Assembly (NCBI RefSeq): GCF_036971445.1
Contig: NC_091471.1
Location: 289,106,001 to 289,170,000 of the forward strand
Length of the DNA stretch: 64,000 nucleotides
Direction of reading: 5' to 3'
Source: Narcine bancroftii
Lineage: Eukaryota
The notes under the pieces are model-generated. The model saw only the letters and a list, made by a program, of their open reading frames with translations. It was not told the DNA's origin and ran no database searches. This document shows positions 8,915-43,739 of this stretch, in pieces (position 1 is the stretch's first letter; every line of letters begins with the position of its first letter). A program made the position numbers and the translations under genes.

Positions 8915-9999
8915 CTATGGAAAATGACACTGCCAATAGTGAGTTCAGAGAGAGAAACAGTGATAATCCAGAGCATATCATTCAGAAAAATGGGATATGC
9001 AATGTCATGGAGAGAAATAAAATAGATCTTTATATCTGCAGGACCAATTGAGATGCATCTCAGTCAACTGTGGAGCATGAGAGAAGATGTTGTGGGGATC
9101 ATTAGATTTTGTTCACCACACATGAGTTGCCGGATGACTGCAGGATAGCAAAGGTGATTCTTACCCCAGTTGTAAAAACTCTGAGGAATCTGATTTCATT
9201 ACATTTGGAATGGCAGGGATTGATTAGGAATGGACAGCATGGAATCACTTGTAGAAACTCCTGTCACACAAAAGTGATTCAATGTCTTGATGTTGTAACT
9301 CAGTATATATTTACAACAGTATTCCTGTTGAAGTTGTCTATTAGGGCTTTAGTGAGGCCATTGCTGCTTCCTGATGGCCTACTCCACAAGGTTAGCAACC
9401 GAGGCTAAGAGGAAAATTGGATCCAAAATGCTCTTGGTACTAGGAGGCAGAGGGTAGTGGCAGATGTTTTCTCTTCTGATTGGAAGTTTGTGATGAATGG
9501 TGTATGCAACGATTGCAGTTTTTGTTTTAAATTAGGCATACAGCACAGTATCTGGCCCTTTCAGACCATGAGCCCATGCCACCCAATTACACTCAATTGA
9601 CTTACAACCCCAGTATTTTTTGAAGGGTGGGAAGTAACTGGAGCAAGAGGATCAGCTGAAGATGGGGACCAGATCAAGGGGAGATATAGTAAGCCACGGC
9701 CAGTACCTCACTAAAATTGCAACCAGAATCGTCACAGGAAGTCTCACTGCTGCATGAGGAGAGGATTCAGTTAGTTTGTTAGGGAATGAGAACAAGAAGG
9801 TCAGACAGAAAAGGGAGCAATGGGTTAGGAGAGTGGTCCCAGAACAAGAAATATATCTTTTAATCAGGACCAGATTAAACATGAAACTAGTTTTGAAATG
9901 CATGTGGAGAAACAGAGAAGAAAATAAGAACATTGTCACTGAACTGCAGATGTAATGAAGTACGTTTCCTTTATATGATCTACTTTGACATTTGGGACT

Positions 10000-11030
10000 C
10001 CATTAAATAAAGACTGGGAAGACGGGTGTATTTTGTGGAAATGATGATGGTATTTGTGCTGTGCCCAGTGATACCTGGTGTTAGTTGGTCAGGTCTCATG
10101 TGCAGATAGTAAGCAAGGAACATTGGTGTCTGATGGGCCATGAGCTTCATGCCATGGTTGATGCCTTGCCCTTCCAATACTCTTTCAAACAAAATGTATG
10201 CTGGCACATCAAAGGCAGTGGTCACTTTATCATCGGGAAGTGCATTCACTGGTACGTTGCTACTCAAATGTAGAAAGAGGTCTTGTTTTCAGGATTGGAA
10301 GATGGAACATTATCTCATGGATTTTTTGGAATATTTTATTTCAATCAACATATATAAGACAATAATGACAAACTATAATAAATCATCATATTACGGTGTT
10401 AACAATGTTGAGAGCAAGATTCAACTTTCCCAATGAAAGCATCAGGAATGGCTTTCAGGCATCTGTTTAATGATAGTAAATACCAGCAAAATCTGCAAAG
10501 GGAGATCGAATAGTGAGATTTGTTTGAATTTGTTCAGGAAGGCCGTTGTCCTCGTAACAGTTTTCCCTTAGCTGTTGGGATTATTTCCAGTCCTGTGAGA
10601 AGATTGTTGGAGATGAAATGCATCATTGCTGCAAGAAAGATTGGTAAAATTTGGGGCAAGAATTCAACTTTTTATTTGACATGGATTTTCATAAAGAAAG
10701 ATCCTGTTGTGGATGTTTTGTGGAGCAAATGTAAGATGGTGAAGCATTTCAATGGAAGCCATTTTTGTAGATGGTGTTCCATAGCTCCTCCTGATTGATG
10801 AGGTCAAAAGGTTTGGTGAGGTTGAGAAAGGCCACGTGTGGTGACTGATGCTGCTTTCTAAATTTTCCTTGGAGTTGTTGCACAGAAGATCATGTCTTCT
10901 TTGCCTCTGGATGGACAGCTATCAATGTGATTTGGTGAGCAGCTCTATGGTCAGTAGATAAGGTGGTTGAGAAGGACACTTATGAAACTTCCCCTATAAC
11001 AGTAAATTAGGTTACTCCTCTATCACAATT
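10000..11030 (-). mobile_element. Old, highly degenerate RTE-like LINE remnant (mirrored at ~39370-40780 on +)
   Basis: The minus strand retains decayed RT-region pieces such as GRGKEDMIF..QQLQGK and AFxNLTKPFD. Confidence 0.55.
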
Positions 11031-12709
11031 GGGTGTCTTTGTGTCCATCAGTGTCAGTGGCCATTTTCAAGTCCAGGTGGAAGGCTCATCAACACTGATA
11101 TTGTGACCCTGGTGAAGCAATAATCTTCTACACTGATGCCCAGATTTTATATTCAATGGGAACCTACATACTATAAAACATTATAAAATTATATAAGGCA
11201 TGGAGAGAACAAATTGTCAGAAATTCTTTTCCATATGTGGATAACAAAAGCATGAGAATATAGGATAAAAATGAAAAGAAAATTTTAAAAGGGTCTGAAT
11301 GAAGCTTATGAAACAGAGATTGTTTAATATCTGGAACTCACTGCCAGAAGATGTTAATGTCAGATACAATCACTACATTGAAGAGACATTACAGCCAATA
11401 CTTATGTGGCCAGGGCATAGAACTATACAGACCTAATGCAGGGTGTTTGGAGCAGTGTCGATAGCAAAATAGTTGGCTGGATATTGTGGTTTGGATGGCA
11501 CTTTTCTGCACTGTTGCACTCTATGACTCCATGACCTGCCTCCTGAGATCCAGAGCTGTTGGCAAGAGATAGAGGACCAAATATGTTGACTCATGAGAGA
11601 ATGGTTTAAAAGAACAATATTATAATTGTAAGAGATTTTAATATTCTAAATATGAATTGCAATTGCCTTACTGTGAGTGAATGAGATGCGGTCATAATTG
11701 CAATGTTCCTCCAGAAAACTATGTAGATAGTTCCATCGGAACCTATCAATACAAGCTTGGAACCAGGAAATCTTTGAAATGAAGGTCACCAAGATGTTGA
11801 TGTGTCATCGGGGGCTTATGTTCAGAAATGAGATTACAATTCTGTCAGTCTCAAGGGAATTATGGAAAAGGTTAGGATGATCTGGAAGATCAAGTCTGAA
11901 ATTGGAAGAAGACCGATTCCAATGATAGAAGAGAGGACCATTGACTGTGAGAGGGTGACATCGAGGATAACTATTCAACCTAAGGGAGTCACTCAAAACT
12001 GATGGGGTGAGGCTCAGGGACAATGTGCTCCTGTAAATGTGAAAGTTATCTTGCCATTCGTTAGTGAACACTGTATATCATTGGTACCAATTGTTTGATA
12101 AAAGGGAAAGGAAGCATATCTGTGATTGAAACTGGAGACTCACTTGATGAGTGCAAACTGAATGTAAAATAGAAATGAAGAGGACAAAGAAAGGCTATGA
12201 ATCCGAATCTGAGTCAGAATCAGAATTTATTGTCACGAACATGTCACAAAATATGTTTTTTTGCAGCATCATTACAGGTGCATAATTGCTATAATTTATT
12301 TTTTAATTAGTGCAAAAAGTAAGAATATTGAGGTAAACTGTGTGGCTCATTTTCCATTCAGAAATTCTGATTTAAGACATCTGACGGAATCTTCACATCG
12401 AGGCGAAGTTAGTGCATAGAATATATCGAATGTAGTGAGAATAGCAGCAATCACTGCTCTGTAGGTCCTAGCAGTGGCCAAACTGGGAGGTCTAGAACTG
12501 GACCTGGAAGTCACGAGGCACAAGATGGAGGTGGAGGCAAGTAAAGAGAAGGAAATGTGGCAATGAAAGGGAATCTGGGTGAGTACATGGTCATAGAGCT
12601 TGAGAACTGATGGGGAGGATCCCACAAACATCCCTTCAGAGATCGAAGGAGAACTTGTTCAGAGCAGGCATCTCTGGAAGAGATTTCAGAGTCTTGCAGT
12701 AGACAGAAA

Positions 12710-13125
12710 TAAAATACAAAGGTCTGCAAATACTGCGGTTGAAGTAAAAACACAAATCTGGAAAAACTCAGCAAGTCAAAGAGTGCACTTTATTCAGCAA
12801 AGATTAAGATACATAATCAAGGGGTGGGCAAAATGTGGGCAGGTGCCCAAACAAAATGCTGCGGAGGGCATCAAAAGGACGACATTCCATAAGCAGAAGG
12901 TTACAGATGAAGGGAGGGAGAACACGCCAGCAAACAAGGGGAGGGGTGAATGGGTCTGTGAATGGAGAGGGAAGGGGATAGAGAGCAGGGTGAAACAAGA
13001 CAGAGTGATGGAGATGAGTGTGGAAGAACGGGGAGTATGCAGGCAGAAACCAGAGAAGTTGACGTTAACGCCATCTGGCTGGAGAGGGACGAGACAGGAG
13101 TTGGGTGTTGTTCCTCCAATTTACA
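12710..13125 (-). mobile_element. Penelope-like (GIY-YIG) element 3' end and tail fragment
   Basis: KLEEQH..QPDGVNVNFS-like C-terminus followed by the GAAAAACTCAGCAAGTCAA-type tail. An inverted paralog lies at 34705-35145. Confidence 0.65.
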
Positions 13126-13616
13126 GGAGACCAATCTAATGATGCCAATAAATGGCAGCAAAGTCAGATGTTTGGAGAATAAGTCATTTGCAACACCCTC
13201 CTTTATTACACATGGCACAGAGTAAATATATCACAGCACAACTTTGTCATTCTTTGGTCTGGCCATGTCTGGAGCATCATGTCCACTGTTAGATGGGGCC
13301 CTATTAATTGCTTTTGAGGGATCCAGGTGTTGCCCAGAATGGAAGATTTCAAAAAAATAAACTGTTAGACAGGTTGGGGCAGTTGACCTGGAGGAGAGGA
13401 AGCTGATGATCGATAAGATAAATATTTTTAAAAAATGAAGAATAGAGCTTTTATGGGGGATGGTGTTGGGGTGGGGGGTGGTGGGGGAGACTGAAACAAG
13501 AGGTAGGGTTGGAAGATGAGAGGTGGGAGGGTTAGAGGTGATCAGAGGATGATATGTGGTCTAAATGAATGGCTGGCATCTGGAAGGTAGTGTGATAGTA
13601 CAGATTCTGTCACCAA

Positions 13617-13821
13617 TGTAGATTTGTGCAGATTGTAGTGTATGATGACTGTGATTGGCTGAGAGCATAGCCACACCTACTGGCAGGTCTTAAAGGCTTG
13701 CTCCTAGCTAGACCAGGTCATTCTGGACTGGTCAACCTACTTGTGATATGCTCCAGTCTTTTAGTTAATAAAAGCCTTGGTTTGGATCAACAAGTCTTTG
13801 GTTCTTTCGACATGCTCTGCA
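13617..13821 (+). mobile_element. Probable short solo LTR (Gypsy-like)
   Basis: TG...CA ends, an ATTGG box and AATAAA at ~13767. No clear TSD found. Confidence 0.4.
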
Positions 13822-13833
13822 GGAGCTCTAGAG

Positions 13834-14629
13834 CACACATGTCAAACTCAGGCCCGCGGGCCAAATTTGGTCCGTGATATAATTATATTTGGCCCGCAAG
13901 ATCATATCAAATATGTATTAGAGCTGGCCCACTTGCCGCCGCGCCAGTATAGCGCATGCAGAGCTAATACTACAAATCCCAGAATGCTTTGCAAATGCGT
14001 TGGCGTCAGCCCGCTCATCGCCCCCACCTCCTCTCTTTACTTTCATTAGAGTCTGCGACCTGTCGCCCAACTCACATGTAATAAACCCCTTACGAAAAAT
14101 GGCCAAACCAAAGACAGAAAACAGGACCTTTCAAGACAGGTGGGAGGCAAACTCTGACCCCAGACTTTGATGAACTTGCAACTAAGAAGAGATGCCAAGT
14201 ATCTGGTTTAGACCCAGGTGCATCAGAGTAAATCACAGTGTAGCAAGCGAAGCTTGGATTCATATTTTCTTTGGTTAACTTTGGACTGTTCATAGTTGAA
14301 AGATTGGATTTTCATTGAAGCAAGTTGTTATTTTTTTGACTTGTTGGCTTGTGAAAAAAAATACATTTTAAAGGAGCTTAAAGGCTATAGAGAAGTATTA
14401 TTTATTGAATATTTTATTTCTCATTTGTTAATGCTTCTTCTGGAAAGAGTTTAACCAAAACTATTATGAAACATTTATTTTAATAAGAAAAAGTTTAACA
14501 TTACATATGTTGAAAGAAGAGAAAACATGCAGATGTTGTTGAAAAATTTCAATAAATATTTAGTTTGGCCCACGACTTAGTCCAAGTGTTTAATTTTGGC
14601 CCTCTGTGAATTTGAGTTTGATACCCCTG
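13834..14629 (+). mobile_element. Non-autonomous hAT (Charlie/GTF2IRD2-type) DNA transposon, internal deletion derivative
   Basis: Perfect 8-bp TSD CTCTAGAG (13826-13833, 14630-14637). Imperfect TIRs CACACATGTCAAACTC / GAGTTTGATACCCCTG. Transposase N-terminus (MAKPKTENRTFQDRWEA, ATG 14099) is fused out of frame to the C-terminus (TLTPDFDELATKKRCQVSG). Confidence 0.92.
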
Positions 14630-15669
14630 CTCTAGAGGATCTATCCTCTACCTGAGTAGATGGGGAGGGAAGTAATTTTGAAATATTTTAGAAGCAACTG
14701 GAGAAGATGAATTGTTCACAAGGCCAAATATGTGAAATGCGACGAACATTGATTTGTGCCATGGTCAGCATGAACTGAGTGGGCTGAAAAACAGGTTATT
14801 ATGTCCTTCAGGCTCACAATTCAATGACTGATTATAAAACCAAAGACCTGAATTCAAATGATGGGATGAGAGTGGCTGATTTGTCATCAAGATAGCATTT
14901 GACCAAGTGGAACACCAAGGAGTCCTGGCAACACTAGAGTGAACTGGTATCAAGCAAGAACAAATCAATGGGTGGAATCATCCCTCACTTGAAGAATGTT
15001 GTGGTTGTTGCAGGTCCCAGCGCACAACTGCAAGTGTTCCTTTTGGCAGTGCCCTCAAACCAAGCATCTTCACCTAATTCATCAAGACCCTTTTTTTCCA
15101 TCAGAAGATTAGAAGTGGAGTCATTCATTGATTGTAACCCTTGATCAAACCTCGTGCAGCTCGACAGAGGCAACATCCATTTTGGATGGTAAGTGGCAAG
15201 TAACAGAAATGCTGGACAATGAATGTGTGCAAAGCATCAATTGGAGGAGGCTCAAGAACCAGGGGATAGAGAATTTTAAAAAATGGGCAAAATAACATGA
15301 AGAAAAACAAACTTACACAGTGAGTGGTGAGAGATGGGAATGCACTACCAGGCGTATTAATGCAGGGAGATTCATGGCTGCTGGAAAGAGGAGAGGGGAC
15401 TGGTGCTGATGTGCTCTTAATTGCTGATGACTTAGTGAGGGACATTAGGCTGGTATGGAGACAACAGGTAGAGTGGCCTCCTTCAGTGAGATAACCATTT
15501 TGTTATTCTATGACCTTTACCCTTTGATGTGGAACTGTGATGCTTAAACAGTGACTCCATTGCAGGCAACTCTTTTCAAGTGAAAAATGTTCAGTATTTG
15601 GAGAATTGGTGAGGTAAACATTTTGTGTCCAGCCACTAGGATAATCTAGCAGGTTCCAATTCCAATAGC

Positions 15670-15992
15670 TAGTGCTACAGCAGCGAGTGGAAGAATGACA
15701 CACACTCAATGAGACTGTAGTCAAGATTGCTTTTGTTGCTCTCCCGCCCTTGATTATATAGGCCCAGCTTCCCACTACTGGGCACGGTTTTCCCACTGTG
15801 GTTGGTGCAAGTTACATCACTGGCATTCCAGTCGCTGATTGGTCGCCATTCCTGCCAATGATGGCTGTTTCCCTCCAAGCGAGCTGTTAGATGGGAAGAA
15901 AGACCATTACCCCACGTGGGGTATGTGAAATGGCCGTGTTCATCCGCCATTTTTTATATTGGGTCGCCTCCTGGGTACCGGGCCACTACAAA
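15670..15992 (-). mobile_element. Probable solo LTR, present only in the left duplication arm
   Basis: ~320 bp block ending ...CACTACA that is absent at the homologous site (~32345) of the right arm. Confidence 0.5.
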
Positions 15993-16277
15993 ACATCTGT
16001 TATACTCGAGTCAGATCCAATCATCCTCCCCTGTGAATCTCTCATTTATAGAGAATCTAAACCAAAGGACAATGATACACAAGTTAAGTCGCTTCATCAA
16101 CTGTTGTTCACCCGAGAAATTGATTAAAACATTCTCCTTTCATCAAAAATCCTCACTGCAGAATATTAAGATGTAGAGAATGCAAAATGGAAGTGAATCC
16201 TTCCGTTTATGCAACATTACCGAGGGCTTAGTCCCAGTGCTTTAACTTGAATCAATCTGATTCCCCCTAGAGAACCT

Positions 16278-16714
16278 GAGAATACAACAATGGTACATAG
16301 AAATGAATAAATGGATTCTATTGGAAAAAAATAACATATAATTAAAAAAAATAAAGTCACATGATTTGAACAAATTTGGGAAACGTAGATGGATCACAAC
16401 AGAGAGGGCCTACCACGGACCTCCACCCACTAAGATGATAGATGAGAAGAAGACGAAATGACCTGATCCAGTGTGTAAACGTAGCTGACACATTTTTCTT
16501 CTTTATTTTCATTGTGTGATGACTTTGTTTCATGGGTTTATTGTATTGTATATGTTGAACTTTTAATGGGTTTGGAGGGGTGTGGGAAGGAGGGAGGGAA
16601 GGTAGAGGGGAAAAGAGGGGCAAAAATTCCACTGTGTATATTCAAGAGGGAAATGTTTGTGTGCATTTTGATTAATATGGTTCATAGTGTGAAAAATAAA
16701 AAAAATTAAAAAAA
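16278..16714 (+). mobile_element. 5'-truncated L1-like 3' end with A-tail, left arm only
   Basis: Similar to the reverse complement of 1890-2300. Ends in AATAAA and an A-run. Absent from the right arm at ~32080. Flanked by AACCTG. Confidence 0.75.
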
Positions 16715-19329
16715 CCTGTTTGCTCCCTCTGGAGACCAACACTGTAGATTGTGCTGAGGTCCCAATGCCATCTGACTATAAGATTCCACCTGGTTATCAA
16801 TGTACATCAGAATGTGAATGACCAGTCCTCTGTTAGTCTCTAATATTTATCTGGAGAGTTAAATTTCAAATAAAACGAGGACTTTGGAAGCCAACTTCAC
16901 TCAATTGAAAACAGAATGTGGATGGCTAGGGGCAAGTCTGCAGAGAGTTGTTGCTGCTTCACTCAGTTTACAAAACTTCTGATCAGCTTCATCAAGCTGG
17001 ACTAAATTGTAAATGGAGGGGGATTCTGTCCTGATCCAGTGAGAAGAAACTCCATGATAAAGTGGACATTATTGAGCTGTGCAAATGGAAAACAAACATT
17101 TCCTACTTTCCAAATTTTGAAAGGAAAATTTCCAGCGCGCCAGCTTTGCATTGAGCCGAAATACCCATTAGGAAACTGCAAATGTACTACAATCCATGGA
17201 TAATAGTATTTACAGCTCAATTGAATTATAATCAACTATTTTTAATTGTAATTATCAAAATGTTCAACTTGTGAAAATAACAAACATCTGCGGTGCCAGC
17301 AGGAAACAACCTGCTATTTTAAGGAGGGGGACTGTCCTGAACTCAGACAAGACGCTCAGATCTGCTTTTTATACCTCATTACCCAAATATCAGAGATTCT
17401 GTTGTTACTAAGATGTGAGTCTTGTATCTATCAGGCACTTAACTGTTTAAAGACTCTTGGAAAAGGACATGGATATCAGCAAAATGGAGTGTTATGCATG
17501 TAAGGTGGAGAAATATTAGATAGTTGTGATTTATCTAGGTCACCAAAACACCATGGGTTGAAGGGTCTGTGCTGTACAACATTGTTCTATGTAAAGGGGC
17601 ATCATCTCCAGGGCTCCCTGAAATTTAAAGAACAGGAATTGCTTCAGAAATTCGGCCATGTTGGGAGTACCTCACGCGACTGACTTATTCACTGAATTCT
17701 GTAGGACGGAATGTTCATCAAGGCCAATGGTGTAAATGGGTCACATTGAGATCACTCCCATTACATGGGCAAAACTTGGTTTGCTTTCCACTAACATCAA
17801 ATGAAGGGAGATGTGTAATCGAATTCAACTCAATGCCAGCCACTTTACCCCAATCCAATGTTAAATTGACCCATTGCTTGTTTTAATTCTTATGATGTTA
17901 TTTCATTAAATCATTTCAGTTTCTGAAATCTGTGAATCAGCCTGGTCTGTGCATCTGTAGCATCAGTCCCATTGACCCACAGGCCACTCCTCCAGTGGGA
18001 AGCCAGAGAGTGAGTGTGGACAGACAGGTTCAAATGAAACCAGCTGATCCCACTGCTGCCCTCCTCCCACTCAGAGCCATCAGGGACAATGATGGTGAGC
18101 TGGAAAGTGGAAACCTTGGCTGTGTTCTGATTTGTATCCCTGGACATCTAGACTAAGATCTAATTTCATTGGATAAGAACAAGGATAAGCACGTGCAGTT
18201 GCCGAGACAGAAAACCCTAACACAACATGGATAACTTATTTCACCTTCTTTATGTGGATACTGACAACAGTCCAAGTCAATTCTATACAGATGGAAGGTG
18301 ATAAAGTGACATGGACATTCAAGAAAGAAAGACCGGTGACTAAATCAGCCACATCCCATAGTTCAACCAACAGCAATAAAACCTATTGCATGGTCGGTCC
18401 AGGATAGTACATCAGAACTATGGAGGGTGAAGGGTAGGAGTGCTGACATGTGTATAACAATAATCAAATCTAATCATCACGCTAAATTGGTCAAATAAAT
18501 GATCCAAGCTAAACAACAACAGAATTAATAATACTACACTTGAACGGTTTTGGCTTGGTGTCAGCTGAGAGAATAAAATGCCTCAGATATTGCAAAACAG
18601 ATTTGCCAACACCTTCATGTTACATGGGTCATCACGCTTAACAGCAAAGACCTGCTTTGTATCACAGTGTTAAACCTGTGATTCCGTCTTCTGGAAGCTG
18701 ACCCTGAGATGAGCCATTATTTTGAATGCTTGAAGTCAAAGAAAATATGTTTGTGTTTTTATGTAGTAGAGTTCATAAGAGCAAACCCAGTCTCCTGGGA
18801 AACCCATGTGGAGGGTGAGTGAGGGGTAGGATGAGCAGCAAAGAGCAGCCGACACAGAGGATAAAGAGCATCGGCCGTGGTTAATGCTCTTCCTGGGGAG
18901 AAAGGGCCACAAGAAGCAAATGGTAAACAGCCCATCAAAGGGAAAGGGAGTCGTGGCCAAACTGACCCTAACTCATGGCCCCAAGGACTTTATCAAGGCT
19001 CCAAACAAGGTAAAGTAGGAACTTGAGAACTTCCCTGAAAAGTCCACAAATCACAAAGAAGAAACATGAGGGGTTGGAGAAATGGGAATTAGAATAGGAG
19101 GAAGCTTGGAAGCTGCTGGGGCTCTGGCTCCTGGGGCAGTGTTGCCAAGCTTAAGCTTAAATGTTTGAAAGTCATCTTTAAATATCGGATCGGGTTTCAA
19201 GGTGCACTGTCTGCTTCACCGCTGAGAGTCAGGTGTAAAAATGACCCGTGAGGTGCAAGCTTTGCAAAAAAAAATTGGCAACTATTAATTCAATTTGATT
19301 TTTCTGAGAAAGAGTGAAAGAGAGTCTGC

Positions 19330-27466: not shown

Positions 27467-27900
27467 TACATATGTATAAATAATATAGGAGCAAGTCAAT
27501 CTAAAAATATAAATCTATCTATAAATTGATCTAAACTGTGGAGCACAGATTCACCTTGCAGGCCAGATATTGAGAGAACTTTAAATTTTTAAACCAACAC
27601 TTTTCATAAACAGGCTCCATATTTTCAAAAATAAATGATAGTTTTTGCATAAATTATAAGAATTTTTTTTCAAGTGGAATAACTGAACGCAATTCTGCGG
27701 GCCGTCTCTCTAAGCCTAAACCTACATTAGGTTTCCATGTAGTAGCAATACATTTCTTTGAAACAGCTAAAGCAATTCGCATAAATTCTATTTGATACAT
27801 AGTTAATCCCAATTACCCTAAACCTAACCCTAACCCTAACCCTAACCCTAACTCCTAAACTGTCTTCAATGCACCAAAACTGCGAATTCATAAATCAAGA
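27215..27900 (-). mobile_element. L1-like LINE 3' fragment containing a (TA)n tract
   Basis: The minus strand gives FMRIALAVSKKCIATTW, as in L1 ORF2 C-termini. TA microsatellite at ~27392-27462. Confidence 0.65.
27823..27852. repeat. Short (CCCTAA)n/(TTAGGG)n telomere-like array, 5 units
   Basis: CCTAAC x5 read directly. Confidence 0.85.
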
Positions 27901-29620: not shown

Positions 29621-32600
29621 TGAAATAGGTCGCCAGTCACAAAGATTGCTTTGTTGTAATATACCAGCTCATTATATCTGGAAAGTTCCTGGAGACCCAA
29701 AAGGGTTGTGGATTTGGATCATTGGGATACTTAGAGAGGAATTAGACATTTTTTCATTGCCAACTATACTTAAAACTTTGGACATTAGCACCAATCACAG
29801 TGTGACACAACTGGTCACAGGCCTCCAATCTTAAAAACAACCCTCCATTGCTACCATCTGCCTCACATGCAGGACCTTGTCAAAGGCATTGCTAACATCC
29901 TTGTACAAAATGAATGCTGCCCAGTCCTCACTGATCCTCTTGGCAACCTCGTCAAGGAACCCATTCAAATTAGTGAGATGCAACTATCCATGCGCAAAGA
30001 CATGACTCTCACATATCCTTGCCTGTTCAAATTCAATGATGTTCTGACTCTGAGTCCGCTCCAGTACACTTTTCCACTGCTGATGCGAAGCTTCCTGGTC
30101 TGAAGCTCCGTGGGTTTTCCTTGCAGCTCTTTGTGAATGGAGGCACAATATAAACCATGCTCAAATCTACCAATACTTCACCCTTGGCTAGCAAAGGTAC
30201 ACAAATCTTTACTAGAGCCTCAATATTCTCCGACCTTGCTTCCCACAATGTTCCACCATGTATTTAGTATTGCAGGTTAACTTTCATTTGAAACTTTCTG
30301 TGCAGTGATGCAATCACAAAGCTGATTCCGCAGTCTGCCTTGATTATCGAGACAATTCGCCGCCTCCCCCACCCCAACCCCGAGATCTTCCCTGTCATAG
30401 GAGTGAGTCTTTTAGGCAATTTAGTGCACCCCACATGACTTCAAGAAACAGCTGAGATTACTGGGTACAGCAGAGTCTCTGGGACCAGATCACATCCCAG
30501 CTGTAGCACAGAACCAGCTAGGCCTTGAATCGATCCATTCCAACTCAATCCACCTAACAATGTGGGAAGTTGCTTGGGTTTATTCTGTTCAACAAATATA
30601 GGAGAAATTCAATGCAATGAATAACGGGCCAATCAGTCAACTTTCAACCATCAAAGGTGGAAGGGTCTCTACAAATGTATCAAAGGGGACTAATGCAACA
30701 ATATTGCAATAATTAATGCCTTACTTGTATTTCTGCAAGAACATCAATATAAAGATATAGAAATGTGGACAAGGCATGAACCTAGTTGCACTCAAGAACT
30801 AGTTGGGACCCCAGCATGCTGTTCCAATTCAGCTTTAACTCTGGCATTTGGCTGGCATTATAGAATCATTGCTCAGGTATGTCCTATTCACAAAAAATAT
30901 GGAAATATTAATTCCAGTTCATTCCCATTTAATCATCAGTAAAGTCACACGTCCTAAATAACTAATGTCCAGCTTGTATTTCCCTGGAGATTACCTGCTT
31001 CCGACCTTATCCAAACCTTGGTCACAACACGGATCAAATAGTTGTATTTAAGACCAATCCAAAGAATCAGAACTCAATTATATGATGACCAGACACTGAA
31101 TTGATGTCCAATTACGCATCTCCTTCATTTTAGTAGAAAGCAAACCAAGTTTTGCCAATGTAATGAAGGTGATCTCAATGTGTCCCATTTATATCATGGT
31201 GGGGGTGGCTGATGGACATTCCCTCCTGCAGAACTCAGTGAATAAATCAGTTGGGAGATGTTCTTCCACCATGGCTAAACTTCTGAAACAATTGTTGTCC
31301 TTTAAACTTCAGGGAGCCCTGAAGATGATATCCCTTTACATAGAACAATGTTGTACAGCACAGACCCTTCAACCCATAGTGTTTTGGTGACCTATATAAA
31401 TCACAACTATCTAATATTTCTCCACCTTACATGCATAACACTCCATTTTGCTGATATCCATGTCCTTTTCCAAGAGTCTTTAAACAGTCAAGTGACTGAT
31501 AGATACAAGACTCACATCTTAGTAACAACAGAATCTCTGATATTTGGGTAATGAGGTATAAAAAGCAGATCTGAGCGTCTTGTCTGAGTTCAGGACAGTC
31601 CCCCTCCTTAAAATAGCAGCTTGTTTCCTGCTGGCACCGCAGATGTTTGCTATTTTCACACGTAGGCAGAAGATAAGTTGAACAATTTTAGAATTACAAT
31701 TTAAAATGGTTGCTTGTCCCACAGCTCAATAATGTCCACTATATCATGGAGTTTCTTCTCACTGGATCAGGTCAGAATCCCCCTCCATTTACAATTTAGT
31801 CCAGCTTGATGAAGCTGATCAGAAGTTTTGTAAACTGAGTGAAGCAGCAACAACTCTCTGCAGACTTGCCCGTAGCCATCCACATTCTGTTTTCAATTGA
31901 GTGAAGTTGGCTTCCAAAGTCCTCGTTTTATTTGAAATTTAACTCTCCAGATAAATGTTAGAGACTAACAGAGGACTGGTCATTCACATTCTGATGTACA
32001 TTGATAACCAGGTGGAATCTTATAGTCGGATGGCATTGGGACCTCAGCACAATCTATAATGTTGTCTCCACAGAGGGTAACAGGTTGATTCAAGTTAAAA
32101 ACACTGGGACTAAACACTCAGTAATGTTGCATAAACTGAAGGATTCACTTCCATTTTGCATTCTCTACATCTTAAAATTCTGCAGCGAGGATTTTGGTGA
32201 AAGGAAAATGTTTTAATCAATTTCTTATGTGAACAACAGTTGATGAAGCGACTTAACTTGTGCATCAAAGTCCTTTGGTTTAGATTCTCTACAGATGAGA
32301 GATTCACAGGGGAAGATGATTGGATCTGACTCCAATATAACAGTTGATTATTGGAATTGGGTCCTGACATTTTAACTTAGTGACTGGACAGAGCAGAATC
32401 AATGCTGGAAATTGAAAAATATACACAAATATTTACTTTACCAATGCTCTAAAATACTGAAGATTTTTCACTGAAAGACAGTTGCCAGCAATGGAGTTAC
32501 TGTCTCAGCATCACATTTCCACATTAAAGGGTAACAGAATGGTTAGCTCACTGACAGAGGCCATTCTGTCCATTGCTTCCGTACCAGCCTAATGTCCCTC

Positions 32601-34704
32601 ACCAGGTCATCAGCAATTAAGAGCACCTCAGTATCAGTCCCCTCTCCTCTTTCCCACAGTCATGAATCTCCCTGCATTATTACAGTGCACTCCCATCCAT
32701 CACCACTCACTGTGTAAGGAGGGTTTCCTTCATGTTACTTTGCCCATTCTCTTTTGTTCCATGTCCCCTTGTTCTTGAACCTCCTCCAATGAAACTATTG
32801 CTCTCTTCGTACTCTATCTGGTCACTCTATTATTTTAAATCCAACTATTACAACTTCTTGCAAAGTCCTCCTTTCTGAGAAGAACAATGGCTGTTTCTCC
32901 TGTCCATTAACACCAACAAGTAAATTCAATTTCCAGATATTAATTTCCCTGTTGCATCTCTCAGACTGCTATAAGTAATAGAGATCCTGGATTTAGTCTC
33001 AAGGACAATGAAGGTCCATCCAGATATTTTTATATCAGGATAGTGTGTGACCTTGAAGAAGTCTGAAAAAGTAACAACAGACTTATTTTCTAATTGTAAA
33101 TCTCTGCAGTCACTGTACCCTGATGGTGAAGAAATTGCACATTCAGGGTGGTGGATAAGGTGCCTGTGCCTGCATGATATTGCCCACTGTTGTTCGGGTG
33201 TTCTCATGCAGACAAGATGAGAGTATTCCATCATGTACTTGACATCGTGCATGGAAATGCGGGAAAGGCTTTGTGTTATCAGGAGGTGAGTCATTCCCCT
33301 CAACACCGACAGCCTTTGATTTTCTTTCTTTCCTGCAGCATTCTTACTTCTGGTCCAGTTAAATTTATGGTCATTGATGATTTCCAGAAGATTGGCAGAG
33401 GGTGGCTAAATGATGTGATGGGAGTGAATGAAAAAGGTCGGTGGTTTGTCACACGTTCACTGGTCTTCATCCTTGTCTGGCGTGTCTTTAATCTGTCATT
33501 TATTAGCCTATGTGGATGTTGTTATGTCGTATGGGTTTTGATCAAGGGTTATGATCAATGAATAACTCCACTTCTGATCTTCTGATGGAAAAAAGGGTCT
33601 TGATGAATGAGGTGAAGATGCTTGGTGTTGTAACCATGGCCAGTAATGTTAAATGAGGAACCGAACTCTCACTCTTGGTTACCCAGAGTAATGAAATGAC
33701 AGACATAGAGGTTTGCCAAAACACTAGGCTCTTTACTTCGATTCTCAAGACATAGACAATTTAAGCAAAAGTCACAAGGCAATCTCATGAATCCTTCAGT
33801 TAATAGATGGCTCTGATGGCAACACCCACTCCTGGTGACTGTGAGTCAAGCTGATTAGGACTCCCTAGCACTTGGTGTGAGGGCTCTGCCAAAAGGAACA
33901 TTTGTAGTTGTGTTCTGGGACCTGCAACAACCACAACATTCTTCAAGTGAGGGATGATTCAACCCATTGGTATGTTCTCGCTTGCAACCAGTTCGCTCTA
34001 GTGTTGCCAGGACTCCTTGGTGTTCCACTTGCTGCCACTCTCATCCTATCGTTAGAATTCAAATCTTTGGTTTTGAACCAAAACTGTAATCAGTCATTGA
34101 AATCTGGGTCTGAGAGCCCAATAACCTGTTTTCCAGCCCACTCAGTTCATACTGACCACAGCGCTAATCCCACATTTAGCCTTGTGAAAAATTCATCTTC
34201 TCCATTTGCTTCTGAAATGTTGTGAAATTACTTCCCTCCACATCTCCTCAGGCAGTACCTTCCAGATTCCACTCATTCATTTAGACCACTTATCGTCACC
34301 TCTAAACCTCTCATCTCACCTCTCATCTTCCAGCCCTACCTTCTTGTTTCAGCCTTCCCCTCCCCCCCCCACCATATATAAGAGCTATATTCTTCATTAT
34401 TTTAAAAAATTATCTTATCGATCATCAGCTTCCTCTACTCCAGGTAAACAGCCCCAACCTGTCTAACAACTTTTTATTTTTGAAATCTTCCAATCCAGGC
34501 AACATCTGGTGAATCTCTCAAAAGCAATGAATAGGGCCCCATCTAACAGTGGACATGATCTTCCAGACATGGCCAGACCAAAGAATGACAAAGTTGTGGT
34601 GTGATATCTTTACTCTGTGCCATGTGTAATAAAGGAGGGTGTTCCAAATGACTTATTCTCCAAACATCCGACTTTGCTACCATTTATTGGCATTATTAGA
34701 TTGG

Positions 34705-35145
34705 TCTCCTGTCAATTGGAGGAGCAACACCTAACTCCTGTCTCGGCCCTCTCCAGCCAGATGGCATTAACATCAAATTCTCTGGTTTCTGCTAGCCTAC
34801 TCCCTGCTCTTCCACACTCATTTCCATGACTGTCTTCTTTCATCCAGCTCTCTATACCCTTCTCTCTCCATTTACAGACCCATTCACCCCTCCCTTTGTT
34901 TGCTGGTGTGGCCTCCCTCCATTCATCTGTAACACCCTTGCCATAGAGTGTGCTCGTTTTCTGGCCCACAACCTAGCACTTTTGTTTGGGCACCTGACAA
35001 CATTTTGCCCACATTTTCAAAAGGGCTCAAGCTCAGAACATTGATTATGTACCTTTATCTTTGCTGAATAAAGGACACTGTTTGACTTGCTGCGTTTCTC
35101 CAGCATTGTGCTTTTACTTCAACCATGGTGTCTGCAGATTTTGCT
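34705..35145 (+). mobile_element. Penelope-like 3' end and tail fragment (paralog of 12710-13125)
   Basis: QLEEQHL..QPDGINIKFSG followed by a tail with TTTCTCCAGCATT. Confidence 0.65.
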
Positions 35146-37103
35146 TCAGTCTGCTGCAAAATTCTGTGAAATCTCTTTCAGAGATGCCAGCTCTGAAGAA
35201 GTATTCATTTGCTCTCTGAAGGGAGGTCTGTGTGATTTTTCTCACTGATCCCCATCTTAATCCCTGCTGTTCTCAAGCTCTATGGCCAGAGTCACTTCCA
35301 CAGCCATGTTTCCCTCCACTCTACTTGCCTCTGCCTCCATCTTGTACCTCGTGTCTTCCAGCTCCAGTTCAAGACCTCCCAGTTTGGGTGCAGTAAGGAT
35401 CTGAAGGAGCTACAGGGCATTGTTTGCTGCACTCTTGGCTTTACTCAATATATTCTAAGCACCACACTTGGCTTGATGCAAAATTCCATTAGCTTTCTTC
35501 CATTGGATTTCTGAATGAAAATTGAAGGCCAGAATGAACCTCACTTTTCTCTACTTTCTGCACTAATTTTTATAAATGTTAATTTATAGCAATTTTGCAC
35601 CTGTAATGATACTGCAAAACAACAAATTTTGTGACATGATCCTGACAATAAATTCTAAGTCTGACCCTGATTCTGCTTCAGGGCCTTTCTTTGCCCTCTT
35701 CATTTCTACTTTACATTCGTTCTGTGTGTTGCACTGTTAGCACTCATCAAGTGAGGCTCCAATTTCAGTTACATATAAGCTTCCTTGATATATGCTTCTC
35801 TAACGAATGGCAAGGTAACTTTCACATTTGCAGGAGCACATTGTCCCTGAGCCTCACCCCATCAGTTTTGAATGACTCTCACTGGTTGAATAGTTCTCCT
35901 CGATGTCACTTCAGCGCTGATCATCTTTATCCCTTTCTATAATTCCCTTGAAACTGACAGAAGTGTAATCACAATTCCCATTATAAACCCCCCAATGACA
36001 CATCCACAACTTGCTGACCTTCATTTCAAAGATGTACTGGTTCCAAATCGATAAGATCTGCTGGGAATATCGACGTGCACTTGAAGCATCTCTTCTGGAT
36101 GTACATTACAATTATGACCCCATCTCCTTCACTCACTGTCAGACAATCCCAGTTCATATTTAGAATATTAAAATCTCCCATTTTAAACCATTCTCTCATA
36201 AGTCTACATATTTGGTCCTCTATTGCCCGCTGACTGCTCTGGATCTCAGGAGTCAGGTCACAGAGCTAAAGAGTGATACAGTACAGAAAAATGCCTCTGC
36301 CCCCATCTTGTACATCGTGTCTTCCAGCTCCAGTTCAAGACCTCCCAGTTTGGGTGCAGTAAGGATCTGAAGGAGCTACAGGGCATTGTTTGCTGCTCTC
36401 TTGGCTTTACTCAATATATTCTAAGCACCACACTTGGCTTGATGCAAAATTCCATCAGATTTCTTCCATTGGATTTCTGAATGAAAATTGAAGGCCAGAA
36501 TACAATATCCAGCCAACTACTTTGCTATCTACACTGCTCTAACCACCCTGCATTTGGTCTGTATATTTCTCTGCCCTGGCCACATAAGTATTGGCTGTAA
36601 TGTCTCTTCAATATCGTGATTGTATCTCACATCAACATCTTCTGGCAGTGAATTCCAGATATTAAACAACCTCTGTGTCAAAAAAGTTTCACTCAGACCC
36701 TTTTAAATTTTCTCCTTTCATTTTTTTTATCCTCTATTCTCTTGTTTTTGTAATTAATGCAGGGAAAAGATATTCTGACAATCTATTCTCTCCATGCCCT
36801 GTATAATGTTATAATTCTTTATGTATATAGGTTCTCATTGAATGTAAAATCTGGACATCAGTGTGCAGTTTATTGCTCCATCAGTGTCACTTGACAACAG
36901 TGCTGATGACCCTTCCACCTTTGCCGATGATTAAGTGATGACTGATCAGGTAGTAATGAGCCGAATTGGGTTTGTCCTACTTTTGGTGAACAGAACACAC
37001 CTGGCCTGCTTCCACCAATGTCAACAGACAGAAATGTTATTACTGTCTGGGAACAGCTAGGGTAAATGCTAGGTCAGTTGTTCCTGAATGTAACACCCTA
37101 TCG

Positions 37104-38897
37104 CACACATGTCAAACTCTGGCCCGCGGGCCCGCAATATAATTATATTTGGCCCGCAAGATCATATCAAAAATGTATTAGAGGTGGCCCACTGGCCGCC
37201 GTGCCAGTATAGCGCATGCACAGTAACCGCTGTGTCCCAGGGTGAGAGAGAAAGAGAAAAATCCTGGTCCTTGAAAAGTAGAGGTGGGTGGTTTTATAAA
37301 CACGCTGTCATGTCCCCCCGCCCACCCCCCCCCCCCACCGCAGCGCAGCTTGGCTGGTGTCAGGGGAAGCCAAGGCCGCTTCCCAGTGCCCAGAACCCCA
37401 GTGGCACAGCGTTTCTTCGAGCTGCAGATGGAGTCGGGACGCCGGAGGGAAGCTTGGGGCTCCCCGCCAGGCGATGGGGGCACCGACCGCCGGCCGCCCT
37501 GCGCCTTCCCTCCAGACCAGCGGCAGGTGCCCGGAGTACACGTGGAGAGCGAGGCTGGTTGGGCAGGTAGGGTGGAACCCCCCCGCCAATCTCGGGAGTG
37601 GCATGGGCTGGATCGGGATTAGCCGCGCTCACCTGCTCCTCAACCACTGACCGGGATCCCAGCGCGGTCCTGAGCGTGGAGACTGCCCTGGAAAGGTCCT
37701 GGGACACCGGCATGGAAAGAAGAGCAGTGTCCGTAGAACATTACAGATCAGAAACAGGCCCTTCGGCCCTTTGACTCTACCTCGTGAAAACCCAACACTG
37801 GAGAAACTCAGCGGGTTAAACCGTATCCTTTATCCAGCAGAGAGGTACCTGACAATGTTTGGCCCTTGATCCCTCTCATCAATGTATGAGCGAAAGTCTG
37901 TGGTTCTCATAAAAACACCAGAAGGGAGAAACTCAGCGGGTCAAAGGGGGGTCCGAGAGAAACTCAGCAGGACAAGGGGGAGGGGTCCGGGAGAAACTCA
38001 GAAGGTCAAGGGAGGGGGTCCGGGAGAAACTCAGCAGGTCAAGGGGAGGGGGTCCAGGAGAAACTCAGCAGGTCAAGGGAGGTCTGGGAGAAACTCAACT
38101 GTTCAAGGTGGGTCAGGGAGAAACTCAGCAGGTCAAGGGGTGTCCAGCAGAAACTCAGCGGGGGCCTGACCTCACCAGGACCGTTGCCCACTCCCCCTCC
38201 CTGCCGCAGGCCGACCTGCGACTCACGGTGACGGGACCGCTGATCCGCCGAGATGCTGCCCTGCAGCGAGAGCCGATGCCCCCGCACTGTCGTTGTCCAA
38301 CCCGATCGCCCGCAAACCCCGCCCTCCCGCACACAGGCCTGAGTAAGTATTATGAACTTTAATCTCAGGATAAAACGATCTTCCAATTGTTTCATGTCAC
38401 AGTGATAAATATATTCCTGGTTAAAAATGGTCCTGCACCTGGATACAAGCTCATTAGGCATAAAACTTGAAAAGTGTGTAAATCAAAGGATATCTGTACC
38501 AATGGAAAAAGTGCATGGCAAATAACCCTGCTAGAGTTCATGCCCACAATCAGTCACCCATTTGATTGTTTCAGGAATCATGTTATTCTCCCACATTCTC
38601 AATAGCCCTCAGATTTTACTATTCAACAGCACACTAGCAACATTTGACAAATCCTCTAGAGAGCAATGTTATTTATTGAATATTTTATTTCTCATTTGTT
38701 AATGCTTCTGGAAAGAGTTTATCCAAAACTATTATTAAACATTTATTTTAATAAGTAAAAGTTTAACATTACATATGTTGAAAGAAGAGAAAACATGTAG
38801 ATGTTGTTGAAAATTTTCAATAAATATTTAGTTCGGCCCTCAACTTAGTCCAAGTTTTTAATTTTGGCCCTCCGTGAATTTGAGTTTGACACCCCTG
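37104..38897 (+). mobile_element. hAT (Charlie-type) element of the same family as 13834-14629, carrying ~1.4 kb of non-homologous internal cargo (Pack-type)
   Basis: Perfect 8-bp TSD CCCTATCG (37096-37103, 38898-38905). Same TIRs as the sister copy. The first ~120 bp and last ~240 bp match the 13834 element, while the interior 37225-38655 is unrelated and GC/CpG-rich. Confidence 0.9.
37924..38165 (+). repeat. G-rich minisatellite, ~8 units of 30-34 bp (GGAGAAACTCAGCAGGTCAAGGGG..GTCC)
   Basis: Units read directly. The core equals the Penelope-tail motif also seen at ~37800 and ~52290. Confidence 0.9.
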
Positions 38898-41479
38898 CCC
38901 TATCGTTTAAATTGACTGAAGACCAGGTTCTGCGATGGAAGAGACCTTGGGTGGAAAGTGAGCTGATCAGCCACTCGTCACTTCTGATTGGACATTGCTG
39001 TGAATGTTTCAACCTTGTCTTTAGCACTTACATACAAAACCCCACCATTTTGCAGCAAGGGGATGTGTTTTGAACCTCCTTCTTCAGTCAACTGTTTAAT
39101 AGTCCACCACCATTCAAAAGAGATACATCTAAAACAAAAGGCCATAGCGGGAGAAAATTAATGGTCAATGGTCAGAAACAATCCTCAAGACAGAGTACAG
39201 AGAAGATATAGGCAATCTAAGGAGGATAGGAGTGGAAGGATTGGGCAGGGGATCGATTCTGTTATTTAATGCCCCAGGACATCCTCACCCACTGTGCTAT
39301 AATTTTGATAATCTGGACTTGAAGATGGCCACTGACACTGATGGACGCAAAGTCCCCCAATTGTGATAGAGGAGTATCCTAATTTACTGTTATAGGGGAA
39401 GTCTCATAAGGGTCCTCCTCAACCACTTTATTTTGTGATCATAGAGCTGCTCACCAAATCACAATGATAGCTGTCCATCCAGAGGCAAAGAAGACATGAT
39501 CTCCTGTGCAACAACTCCAAGGAAAATTTAGAAAGCAGCACCAGTCACCATATATGGCCTTTCTCAATCTCACCAAACCTTTTGACCTCATCAATAAGGA
39601 GGGGCTATGGAACACCATCCACAAAAATGGCTTGCATTGAAATTCTTCACCATCTTACATTTGCTCCACAAAATATCCACAACAGGATCTTTCTTTGTAA
39701 AAATCCATGTGAAATAAAAAGTTGAATTCTTGCCCCAAATTTTACCAATCTTTCTTGCAGCAATGATGCATTTAATCTCCAACAACCTTCATGGAAATTA
39801 AAATACAGAATGAACCTCTCTTTTCTCTACTTTTTGCACTAACTTTTTAAAATGTTAATTTATAGCAATTTTGCACCTGTAATGATACTGCAAAACAACA
39901 AATTTTGTGACATGATTGTGACAATAAATTCTAAATCTGACCCTGATTCTGCTTCAGTGCCTTTCTTTGCCCTCTTCATTTCTACTTTACATTCGGTCTG
40001 TGTGGTGCACTGTTAGCACTCATCAAGTGAGGCTCCAATTTCAGTTACATACAAGCTTCCTTTATATATGCTTCTCTAACGAATGGCAAGGTAACTTTCT
40101 CATTTTCAGGAGCACATTGTCCCTGAGCCTCACCCCATCAGTTTTGAATGATTCTCACTGGTTGAATATTTCTGCTCGATGTCACTCTTTCACGGGCAAT
40201 GGTTCAGTCTTCTATCATTGCAAATCGATCTTCCAACTTCAGCACTGATCATCTTTATCCCTTTCTATAATTCCATTGAAATAATCCCGTCAGCTAAGGG
40301 AAAACTATTACGACGACCACAGCTCTCCAGAACAAACTCAAACAAATCTCAGTATTCAATCTCCTTTGCAGATTTTGCTGGTATTTACAATTACTCAGTG
40401 GATGCCTCAACGTCATGACTGATGCTTTCATTCAGGAATTTGAACCTTGTAGTCAACATACATGAGATAATAATCCTCTATCCACCTTCCAATCCTCAAA
40501 ACAAGACCTCTTTCTACATTTGTGCAACAATGTGTCAGTGAACGCACGTACCAATGATAAAGTGACCACTGCCTTTGATGTGCCAGCATAAATTTTGTTT
40601 GAAAGAGTATTGGAAGAGCAAGGCATCAACCATGGCATGAAGCTCATGGCCCATCAGACACCAATGTTCCTTGCTTACTATCTGCACATGAGACCTGACC
40701 AACTAACACCAGGTATCACTGGGCACAGCACAAAAACCATCATCATTTCCACAAAATACACCCGTCTTCCCAGTCTTTATTGAATGGAGTCCCAAAGGTC
40801 AAAATAGATCATATAAAAAAAAAGTACTTCATTACACCTGCAGTTCAGTGACAATGTTCTTATTTTCTTCTCTGTTTATACACATGCATTTCAAAACTAG
40901 TTTCATGCTTAATTTGGTCTTGATAGAAAGATATATTTCTTGTTCTGGAACCACATAGCTCTTCTACCACATTTGCTCATTTGCTGTGTGACCTTCCTGT
41001 TATCATTTCTCAACAAACTGGCTGAAGCCTCTCATCATGCAGCAGTGAGACTTCCTGTGAGGATTCTAGCCCAAGCTCTGTTGAGGTGCTGGCATTGGGC
41101 TGACTGCATCTCTCCCTGATCTGGTCCCCATCCCCAACTGATCTACCTCCTTTGCTCATGCATCAAACAAATATAAGTTTCCATGATCTTCCCTTTCTCC
41201 AAACCCTCTGGAGTGAAGCAGGGAAGTAATGCAGGGATGACCATGGCAGTGTTCAAGGCATTTCACAATAAACACATTAATAAGTAGGGAATAACATGAT
41301 ATGTATCTTGTAATGCAGCAGAATTTGAGTTTAATTTGTGGATCCTGTATGCCACATGTATCATGACCAGAAGGGCCCATTCCTGTGTTGCACCATGTTC
41401 TATGTTTTCTATACCATCACTGATCTTCCATTTTAATCTCCTCACTACCTTCATGAATTCTGGCAGTTTGGAAATATGC

Positions 41480-41792
41480 AGTCCAGAAACAAGCCCATTG
41501 GCCCATTGGGTTCAACAAGAACATACTTACACAAACCCTCAATAAATCTCATTTCATTTTCACCTCATTCCTTCAACTTCCTGCACATCCCACTGATCAT
41601 CCTTGGACTGGGAATAACTTGGAGCAGTGAATCCTGGGATGTGGGAGCAAACTGGAGCAGCTGAAGGAAATGCACACAGTCACAGGGAGAATTTGTAAAC
41701 TCAGTGCAAACATCACTGTATTTTAAGGTTTGATTCTGGGTCACTGTAACGGTGAGCTAGTGTCTCCATCAGCTGTGTCACTGCACCACCTC
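41480..41792 (-). mobile_element. Degenerate tRNA-derived SINE
   Basis: Minus-strand head GGTGGTGCAGTGACACAGCTG..GACCCAGAATCAAA followed by a body resembling other SINE pieces in the window. Confidence 0.45.
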
Positions 41793-42790: not shown

Positions 42791-42798
42791 ATTTGCAT
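42791..42798 (+). promoter_or_regulatory. Ig light-chain promoter octamer ATTTGCAT
   Basis: Perfect octamer in the light-chain orientation, 120 bp upstream of the leader ATG. Confidence 0.9.
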
Positions 42799-42825
42799 GG
42801 ATTTCCTTCCCGGTGCCAATGTCTC

Positions 42826-42830
42826 TATAA
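42826..42830 (+). promoter_or_regulatory. TATA-like box (TATAA)
   Basis: ~28 bp downstream of the octamer and upstream of ATG 42911. Confidence 0.65.
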
Positions 42831-42910
42831 GTGGGTTCCATCCGCAGCGTCGCCACAGTCTGTCCCAGACACAGCGGTGAAGGGAGGCAGGAAGGTGACG
42901 GGCAGCAACG

Positions 42911-42956
42911 ATGCGGACGCTGTGTTTTCTCTGGTCTCTGGCGCTGTGGCTGGGCT
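42911..42956 (+). CDS. Ig light chain exon 1: leader peptide MRTLCFLWSLALWLG
   Basis: Hydrophobic leader. Phase-1 donor GTAAGT at 42957, a 104-bp intron, and acceptor TCTTTTTCAG at 43051-43060. Confidence 0.9.
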
Positions 42957-43060
42957 GTAAGTACAGGCGGCAACTCTGCCCCGCCAGCGGTTTCTGATGT
43001 GGGCTCTCGGGCTCGCAGTAAAGAGTCACTGATTAATGTGGAATTGCTGCTCTTTTTCAG

Positions 43061-43417
43061 CTGGAAACTCGCAGACTCTGTCTCAACCTCCGAGCGTGTC
43101 CGTGAATGCGGGATCCAGCGCCACGCTGGAATGTAACATCGGGACGAAGGACGGCTATGCTGTTGGCTTCTACAAACAGACTCCGGGAACACATCCGCAG
43201 TTGGTCCTCTATCACTATCACTCCTGGAGTTCCCCGAGCTACGGACCCGGATTCAACAGCAACCGTTTCACAGCGAATCGCAACAGCGCGGCCACCGTTT
43301 ACCGGTTGATCATCAACCAGGTGGAGGTGAATGACGCCGCCGTCTATTACTGCGGGAAGTGGTTTTCGACGAGCAATACTTTTGTGTTCGGCCCAGGGAC
43401 CAAACTCTTCGTTACAG
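43061..43417 (+). CDS. Ig light chain exon 2: germline-joined V-J (sigma-like V)
   Basis: SGNS-QTLSQPPSVSV..ATLEC..FYKQTPG..HSWSSPSYGPGF..RFT..DAAVYYC-GKWFSTSNTFV-FGPGTKLFVT in one open frame with no RSS. Phase-1 donor GTAAGT at 43418. Confidence 0.95.
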
Positions 43418-43739
43418 GTAAGTGTCCGGCAACATCCTCCTGCCATGACCGACGGCTCTACTCCAGACCCAGGTCAATGAATCAGTTCTAGGTTGTCACC
43501 TCCTGAAAATGTTGATTTACAAACGGATCCTATTCCGTGTCCAGCGCCAGTTCGACTCCATGGGGTTTGGTGAATTGTCACCGACATTTAATGACAACTT
43601 TTCGTGGACAGTTGAGATTTTCTAATAACCCTTAAATGGACCCGTTCTGCTAATTAATGCTCTTTCTGGGGTCCTTTTGTCCTATCCCTGAGAAGTCATT
43701 CATATTGTCGAACAGTGCGGCACCAAAACAGGCGCCAAA

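Follow-up and report, generated by a model that had tools for sequence, protein, structure and literature searches.

Members of the hAT superfamily of transposons are described as having short TIRs (5-27 bp) and a length below 4 kb, and those of the Buster type as leaving a target site duplication (TSD) of consensus nnnTAnnn (sections of PMC3517528). The same sections describe Mar of Drosophila, a non-autonomous Buster (Charlie)-type family that arose by internal deletion of an autonomous element. Other TIR elements enclose foreign DNA, among them the plant Pack-MULE and Pack-TYPE elements, which are defined by captured gene sequence (PMC8903248, in part), and the animal Pack-TIRs, of which 370 cases were counted, only four of them multicopy (1.4%), in the portion of Tan et al. 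2021 considered here (PMC8277862). To be classed as a Pack-TIR, according to that portion, an element needs an unambiguous TE-free parental copy, at least 90% identical and without TE ends, and an interior made of non-TE sequence. One of its examples is the frog element Pack-hAT-N8_XT, a hAT transposon that carries 291 bp of the CAPSL 5' UTR and is present in three copies, and for the animal cases it proposes models of gap filling and of fork switching. MER6, in turn, is a vertebrate non-autonomous Tc1/mariner transposon that amplifies one V-SINE domain, that is, a fragment of another mobile element (excerpts of PMC6887750).

The element analyzed here occupies positions 37104-38897 (1794 bp) of the window, the whole 64-kb stretch of DNA under study. 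It resembles Mar in its 8-bp TSD with a central TA, its short imperfect TIRs, its lack of coding capacity and its many copies, but the interior of this 1.8-kb element is unrelated DNA and not the remnant of an internal deletion, as far as the cited sections of PMC3517528 describe Mar. As in the plant elements treated in the consulted part of PMC8903248, TIRs surround foreign DNA. Like the multicopy Pack-TIRs, it has hAT ends around non-transposase DNA, a TSD and a vertebrate host; those elements, however, have a known TIR-free parent and few copies in the cited portion of PMC8277862, whereas this one has hundreds of copies as judged by depth and occurs in rearranged forms. The unique-top-hit requirement of the Pack-TIR pipeline, as outlined there, may have missed families of this kind. 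With MER6 it shares the amplification of a fragment of another mobile element, but as a hAT with a mosaic interior that includes GC-rich DNA (PMC6887750, in part). Since the Pack-TIR class requires a TE-free parental copy, the element is filed as a composite non-autonomous hAT. We favour, with a probability of roughly 60%, a high-copy, non-coding hAT family whose interior came from chromosomal DNA through gap repair and was later amplified and reshuffled. A composite non-autonomous hAT family is of an ordinary kind and is useful for repeat annotation; a search of titles and abstracts found no paper on this one.

The Element and Its Sister Copy

The 5' end (37104-37223, plus strand, with an imperfect TIR) is 86% identical to positions 13834-13963 of a sister copy in the window, and the 3' end (38656-38897, plus strand, with its TIR) is 92.7% identical to 14385-14629 of the same copy, bearing out the two hAT ends that an earlier note on this DNA had reported. 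The TIRs match at 12 of their first 16 bases and at 13 of 22 over a longer stretch. The perfect 8-bp TSD was likewise found as described, CCCTATCG at 37096-37103 (of the nnnTAnnn type) and again at 38898-38905, so that the 8-bp TSD, short TIRs and length below 4 kb of the superfamily are all present. The window shows two TSDs, both with TA as their positions 4-5, which fits the Buster consensus in what is a small sample. A contig of read run X1 equals 36800-37127 with 0 differences and reaches 24 letters into the element, supporting the left junction as real. A repeat at 21.4 kb, aligned with the site as a possible empty site, had diverged too far for the TSD to show, and the inverted paralog at 11075 offers no clean empty site because it lacks the entire 2.4-kb block (36921-39312) in which the element lies. 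The element is likely one copy of an abundant, non-coding, non-autonomous Buster-type hAT family.

The sister copy (13834-14629, plus strand) has its own TSD, CTCTAGAG, and is likely a deletion derivative of an autonomous element. Two of its short frames presumably resemble the start and the end of a Buster transposase, and these frames gave no hAT match in Pfam or in the Atlas. The two interiors do not align, in agreement with the claim that the element's interior is unrelated to the transposase-derived interior of the sister. At 13952-13987 the sister contains motifs that we take to resemble NRF1 and ZNF143 sites; the copy analyzed here breaks off just short of the second motif. A putative solo LTR (13593-13833), absent from the paralog, has the sister at its end.

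Composition of the Interior

Between the sister-type ends lie 1431 bp, within the 100-5000 bp range of Pack-TIR interiors. They comprise a left GC-rich block (37225-37397), which is high-copy and in some family members is joined to 38162 through 9-10 filler letters; a 764-bp centre (37398-38161), missing from some members and present in the order of 100 copies by depth; a right GC/CpG-rich block (38162-38342), of which 38256-38279 comes immediately after the 5' end of another subfamily; and an AT-rich block (38346-38655), 4-12 times deeper than the centre and also present in organism D.

The centre contains several repeats that the earlier note did not describe. On the minus strand, 37732-37770 is likely the 3' tail of a LINE, presumably of the CR1/L2 type, with a weak second match at 41486. 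It is followed by a dispersed repeat fragment (37781-37890, plus strand) with 75% identity to copies at 12744 and 35022 (45 of 60 and 83 of 110 positions identical), which are paralogs of one another. Contigs from the read runs have loose ends in this fragment at 37787 and 37833, and 30 contigs of X1 and 7 of X5 leave it for other DNA, indicating an independent dispersed family. We assume that it resembles Penelope-like ends. Such ends are expected to contain a minimal hammerhead ribozyme, according to part of PMC6155905. An Rfam search of the element for a hammerhead gave no match at the gathering score or at E values up to 5, as a decayed copy might also do; overall there were 0 matches at the gathering score and 4 chance-level matches at E 2-5, and the folding check for a hammerhead yielded a z of 0.12. 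The literature search returned nothing specific on shark HE1/HER1, shark Penelope hammerheads or the tail motif. Next to the fragment is a minisatellite (37924-38159, plus strand) of about 7 copies of a 30-34 bp unit, which shares its core motif with the dispersed repeat and has grown from it.

Taken from the LINE tail to the end of the minisatellite (37732-38159), repeat-derived DNA makes up 428 of the 1431 interior bases. The earlier note had set nested repeats against its own proposal, and for this 30% of the interior, though not for the remainder, nested repeats are what was found. The same bases speak for an explanation with no host capture at all, by which the arms would be native to a second, longer hAT lineage sharing these ends (for example, its transposase promoter, first exon and intron) and the centre would consist of retroelement fragments and minisatellite growth that built up within a long-lived non-autonomous element; MER6, a MITE made of mariner and SINE sequences, provides a precedent in the excerpts of PMC6887750. 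This explanation we consider improbable, given that the interior has no transposase-like frame, that the sister's 5' region is compact (its putative start codon lies 265 nt from the end) and that about 330 bp of the GC-rich centre (37398-37731) are matched by no repeat seen in the window. When the interior blocks were compared with the rest of the 64-kb window, nothing was found beyond two weak matches (E=0.03), and short exact patterns gave 0 matches in metagenome, viral and genome contig collections, where fish DNA is not expected.

Copy Number and Family Forms

A search of public sequencing runs retrieved 13 runs from 4 organisms and 5 studies, 11 of them with part of the interior (best word share, 0.43), and contigs were compared in 4 of the 13. 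In two organisms, contigs cover the whole interior at a depth that exceeds that of the flank by tens to thousands of times; a third organism also has the right arm. In X1 the flank depth is 7.43 and the summed depth across interior bins 4,580-160,000, sums that overcount because contigs overlap and that, being contig depths, are not copy numbers. Single contigs reach depths of 312-351 (X5) and 272 (X6) over the centre and left block and of 3654 (X5) and 1147 (X6) over the right arm, and the centre in X1, estimated contig by contig, stands at 27 to 185 times the flank. Expressed as depth over flank, and as orders of magnitude only, the centre has in the order of 100 copies and the right arm several hundred to about 1000. 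These figures point to an interior that belongs to a family of roughly hundreds of copies. In organism D, 38351-38685 is present with 6 differences in 335 positions and most of the centre is without coverage; this reach of the right arm, the most abundant part of the interior, is a point for arms native to a longer hAT lineage.

At least 75 X1 contigs exit the right end of the element into unrelated flanks (agreement 0.36). Among the contigs listed, none links the interior to a new flank, and none joins it to a hAT end with the standard 31 letters on both sides, although contigs do cross the interior junctions (the best have 30, 27 and 18 letters on the hAT side). That the composite moved as a unit, as proposed earlier from the TSD, is supported by that duplication, to which the reads add that the entire interior is high-copy.

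Four family forms can be distinguished from the 15 of 24 joints and the 24 of 422 loose ends that were listed. The first (form a) is of the sister type, with loose ends at 37223. The second (form b) lacks the centre and passes from 37396/7 to 38162 via the filler letters; at least 17 X1 contigs have the corresponding loose end, but the joint 37397-38162 has a depth of only 13-32 in X1. Form c has a joint from 37721 to 38013. In form d, a joint leads from 37188 to 38256, so that 38256-38279 continues the 5' end; beyond it, X11 and X6 go on with other DNA. This joint was considered and rejected as a simple deletion form, its right side comprising 20-22 letters and X11 and X6 being unlike after 38279. 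Having several rearranged forms, the interior is common, reshuffled property of the family and not a one-off capture. Each of the four runs has the segment 38256-38279 directly behind a hAT 5' end (joint depths of 750, 1648, 114 and 3.95), so at least 22 bp of the interior are common to another subfamily; this position in a subfamily that is itself abundant is a further point for arms native to a hAT lineage, and the recurrence of a 22-24 bp piece right after its 5' end also argues against DNA from a host gene. Loose ends at 38672 and 38758 mark further subfamilies that share shorter parts of the hAT 3' end.

CpG Content, Splice Signals and Coding Potential

The earlier note had read the cargo as the 5' end of a host gene, with promoter and first exons. 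In its strongest form, this would make the element a true multicopy Pack-hAT, in which a host gene contributed its promoter and first exon(s) as the GC blocks, either on the minus strand or on the plus strand ending at 38343, and transcripts begun in the copies may be spliced to exons nearby. We hold this to be doubtful. The CpG-rich blocks contain a GC box, CpG is richer in the family than in this copy, and the old repeats in the centre would fit intronic DNA. The label of CpG island, however, applies to two sub-blocks, 37225-37715 (GC 66%, CpG o/e 0.60) and 38166-38345 (GC 69%, CpG o/e 0.90), and does not extend to the interior as a whole, with a CpG o/e of 0.55; 38346-38655 has a GC content of 36% and a CpG o/e of 0.10.

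This copy differs from X1 at 50 places, about 2.8% of the element, consistent with the word share of 0.43. Transitions account for 28 of the 40 listed differences between the copy and the family contigs, and in 21 of these 28 a CpG of the family has become TpG or CpA in the window (28.5% expected, p=4.6e-7). CpG decay thus dominates the divergence of the copy, which is therefore not a protected CpG island, and from this we infer germline methylation and neutral decay. Of the 3 differences in the 66-nt segment discussed below, 2 would alter the first or second letter of a codon in the reading frame of the peptide proposed there.

On the minus strand, the donor-like motifs at 38175 and 38226, the 66-nt candidate exon (37633-37698) and its peptide are all present as the earlier note had read them. 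Donors were scored with a simple frequency matrix, and chance levels were taken from 500 resamples. The minus strand has 2 donor-like sites of at least 7 bits (1.5 expected, p=0.47) and 2 at 8 bits (0.8 expected, p=0.21), and the plus strand 4 at 7 bits (p=0.22) and 4 at 8 bits (p=0.022), so that donor-like sites are 4 on the plus strand versus 2 on the minus strand; minus-strand ACC/GTGAGT and plus-strand TGA/GTAAGT both score below 7 bits. Acceptor-like sites number 2, with 2.0 expected. The minus-strand signals are therefore at chance level, those of the candidate exon included. The ATG at 37713, said to be in frame with that exon, belongs to the proposed intron, the acceptor following 15 nt downstream, and would be spliced away; one mRNA cannot use both. 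None of the 15 of 24 joints listed, in runs that consist of contigs, coincides with the proposed introns. A raised X5 depth over 37642-37677 was dropped as a signal, run-to-run ratios scattering about 30-fold across sites.

Neither the peptide nor other frames had a protein relative among the candidates scored (0 of 136, 0 of 228 and 0 of 26), a kind of search that short, non-coding or fast-evolving exons and UTRs escape. One of the six interior frames had 0 matches among 1.84 billion proteins, all six frames gave no Pfam family, and an Atlas search of the interior was also blank. With motifs at chance level, no protein relative and 30% of its length derived from repeats, the interior does not bear out the 5' end of a host gene.

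A Plus-Strand Donor-Like Motif at the Switch in GC Content

A motif that the earlier note had not included, the donor-like GTAAGT at 38343-38348 of the plus strand, adjoins the switch from GC-rich to AT-rich DNA: GC content falls from 0.71 to 0.33 at 38330, 13 nt away. This hexamer occurs 22 times in 128 kb, and a hand estimate for a 30-nt window on two strands, with the motif chosen post hoc, gives about 1%. Three contigs of X5 exit the element at 38344, and the long sequences that follow agree with one another at 0.54, close to the 0.56 expected if the three are unrelated. The sharp switch, the motif and these exits look like a real exon boundary and count in favour of a Pack-hAT. If X5 is RNA, the exits would be in keeping with a donor in the element spliced to different exons from locus to locus; the RNA status of X5 is a guess, the break lies 2 nt beyond the donor, and the same break at 38344 may be shared by DNA runs outside the rows listed.

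That a vertebrate Pack-hAT has spread a host CpG-island promoter and first exon to hundreds or about 1000 loci, with the donor at 38343 splicing into host exons, strikes us as decidedly unlikely. If a host donor locus and this splicing were true, they would constitute a rare case of vertebrate host regulatory DNA amplified hundreds-fold by a cut-and-paste element, in which the seeding of first exons by transposons could be tested directly, and a mobile promoter/first-exon cassette whose amplification goes far beyond that of the animal Pack-TIRs in the cited portion of PMC8277862.

Probable Capture and Amplification

In the favoured reading, amplification of captured chromosomal DNA, a Buster-type transposase, supplied in trans by an autonomous element of the sister type, would have excised an ancestor, and repair of the resulting gap would have switched template and copied in chromosomal DNA. 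The capture may have taken place in two steps, first the arms and then the 764-bp centre. The product would have kept both ends and been amplified, and later switches and deletions would have given rise to forms b-d. The age of the embedded dispersed repeat favours a chromosomal origin. Where contigs of the family cover it, they agree with the window at about 98% (5 differences in 259 positions and 3 in 176). The repeat is some 25% diverged from its relatives but only about 2% from the family contigs, and so predates the amplification burst. A repeat older than the amplification favours capture of chromosomal DNA, and arms and centre native to a hAT lineage would demand a very old carrier, considering a repeat divergence of about 25% and a family divergence of about 3%. 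Ordinary chromosomal DNA is the probable source of the interior.

Genomic Surroundings

Downstream of the element, 42791-43491 has the features of a germline-joined light-chain gene: the octamer lies at 42791, and a leader and a V-set exon (43033-43491) follow, the V being fused to a J-like end. On this ground the host is likely a cartilaginous fish, a ray or shark. No exact canonical RSS was found in the 64-kb window, consistent with such a gene. The octamer is 3894 nt away, with the element upstream, which agrees with the distance of about 4 kb to the IgL promoter given earlier. This analysis found no link between the element and IgL control, and most likely the copy is inert, carried as a passenger within an older insertion that lies 3.9 kb upstream of the IgL promoter. 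It also serves as a warning that the CpG-rich, splice-like DNA near this IgL gene is a repeat.

A large inverted duplication relates 9650-17819 to 31111-41143 (74-96% identity in pieces), and each of its sides holds a hAT copy in a block that is missing from the other. Local direct duplications (35326-36501 and 39791-40281, 94-98% identity) flank the element on both sides. Farther away, a frame that matches reverse transcriptase (Pfam RVT_1, E=1e-29) and another that is weakly L1 ORF1-like lie at 1243-2052 and 6998-7630, and a short interstitial telomere-like array of about 7 copies of ACCCTA is found at 27815-27858.
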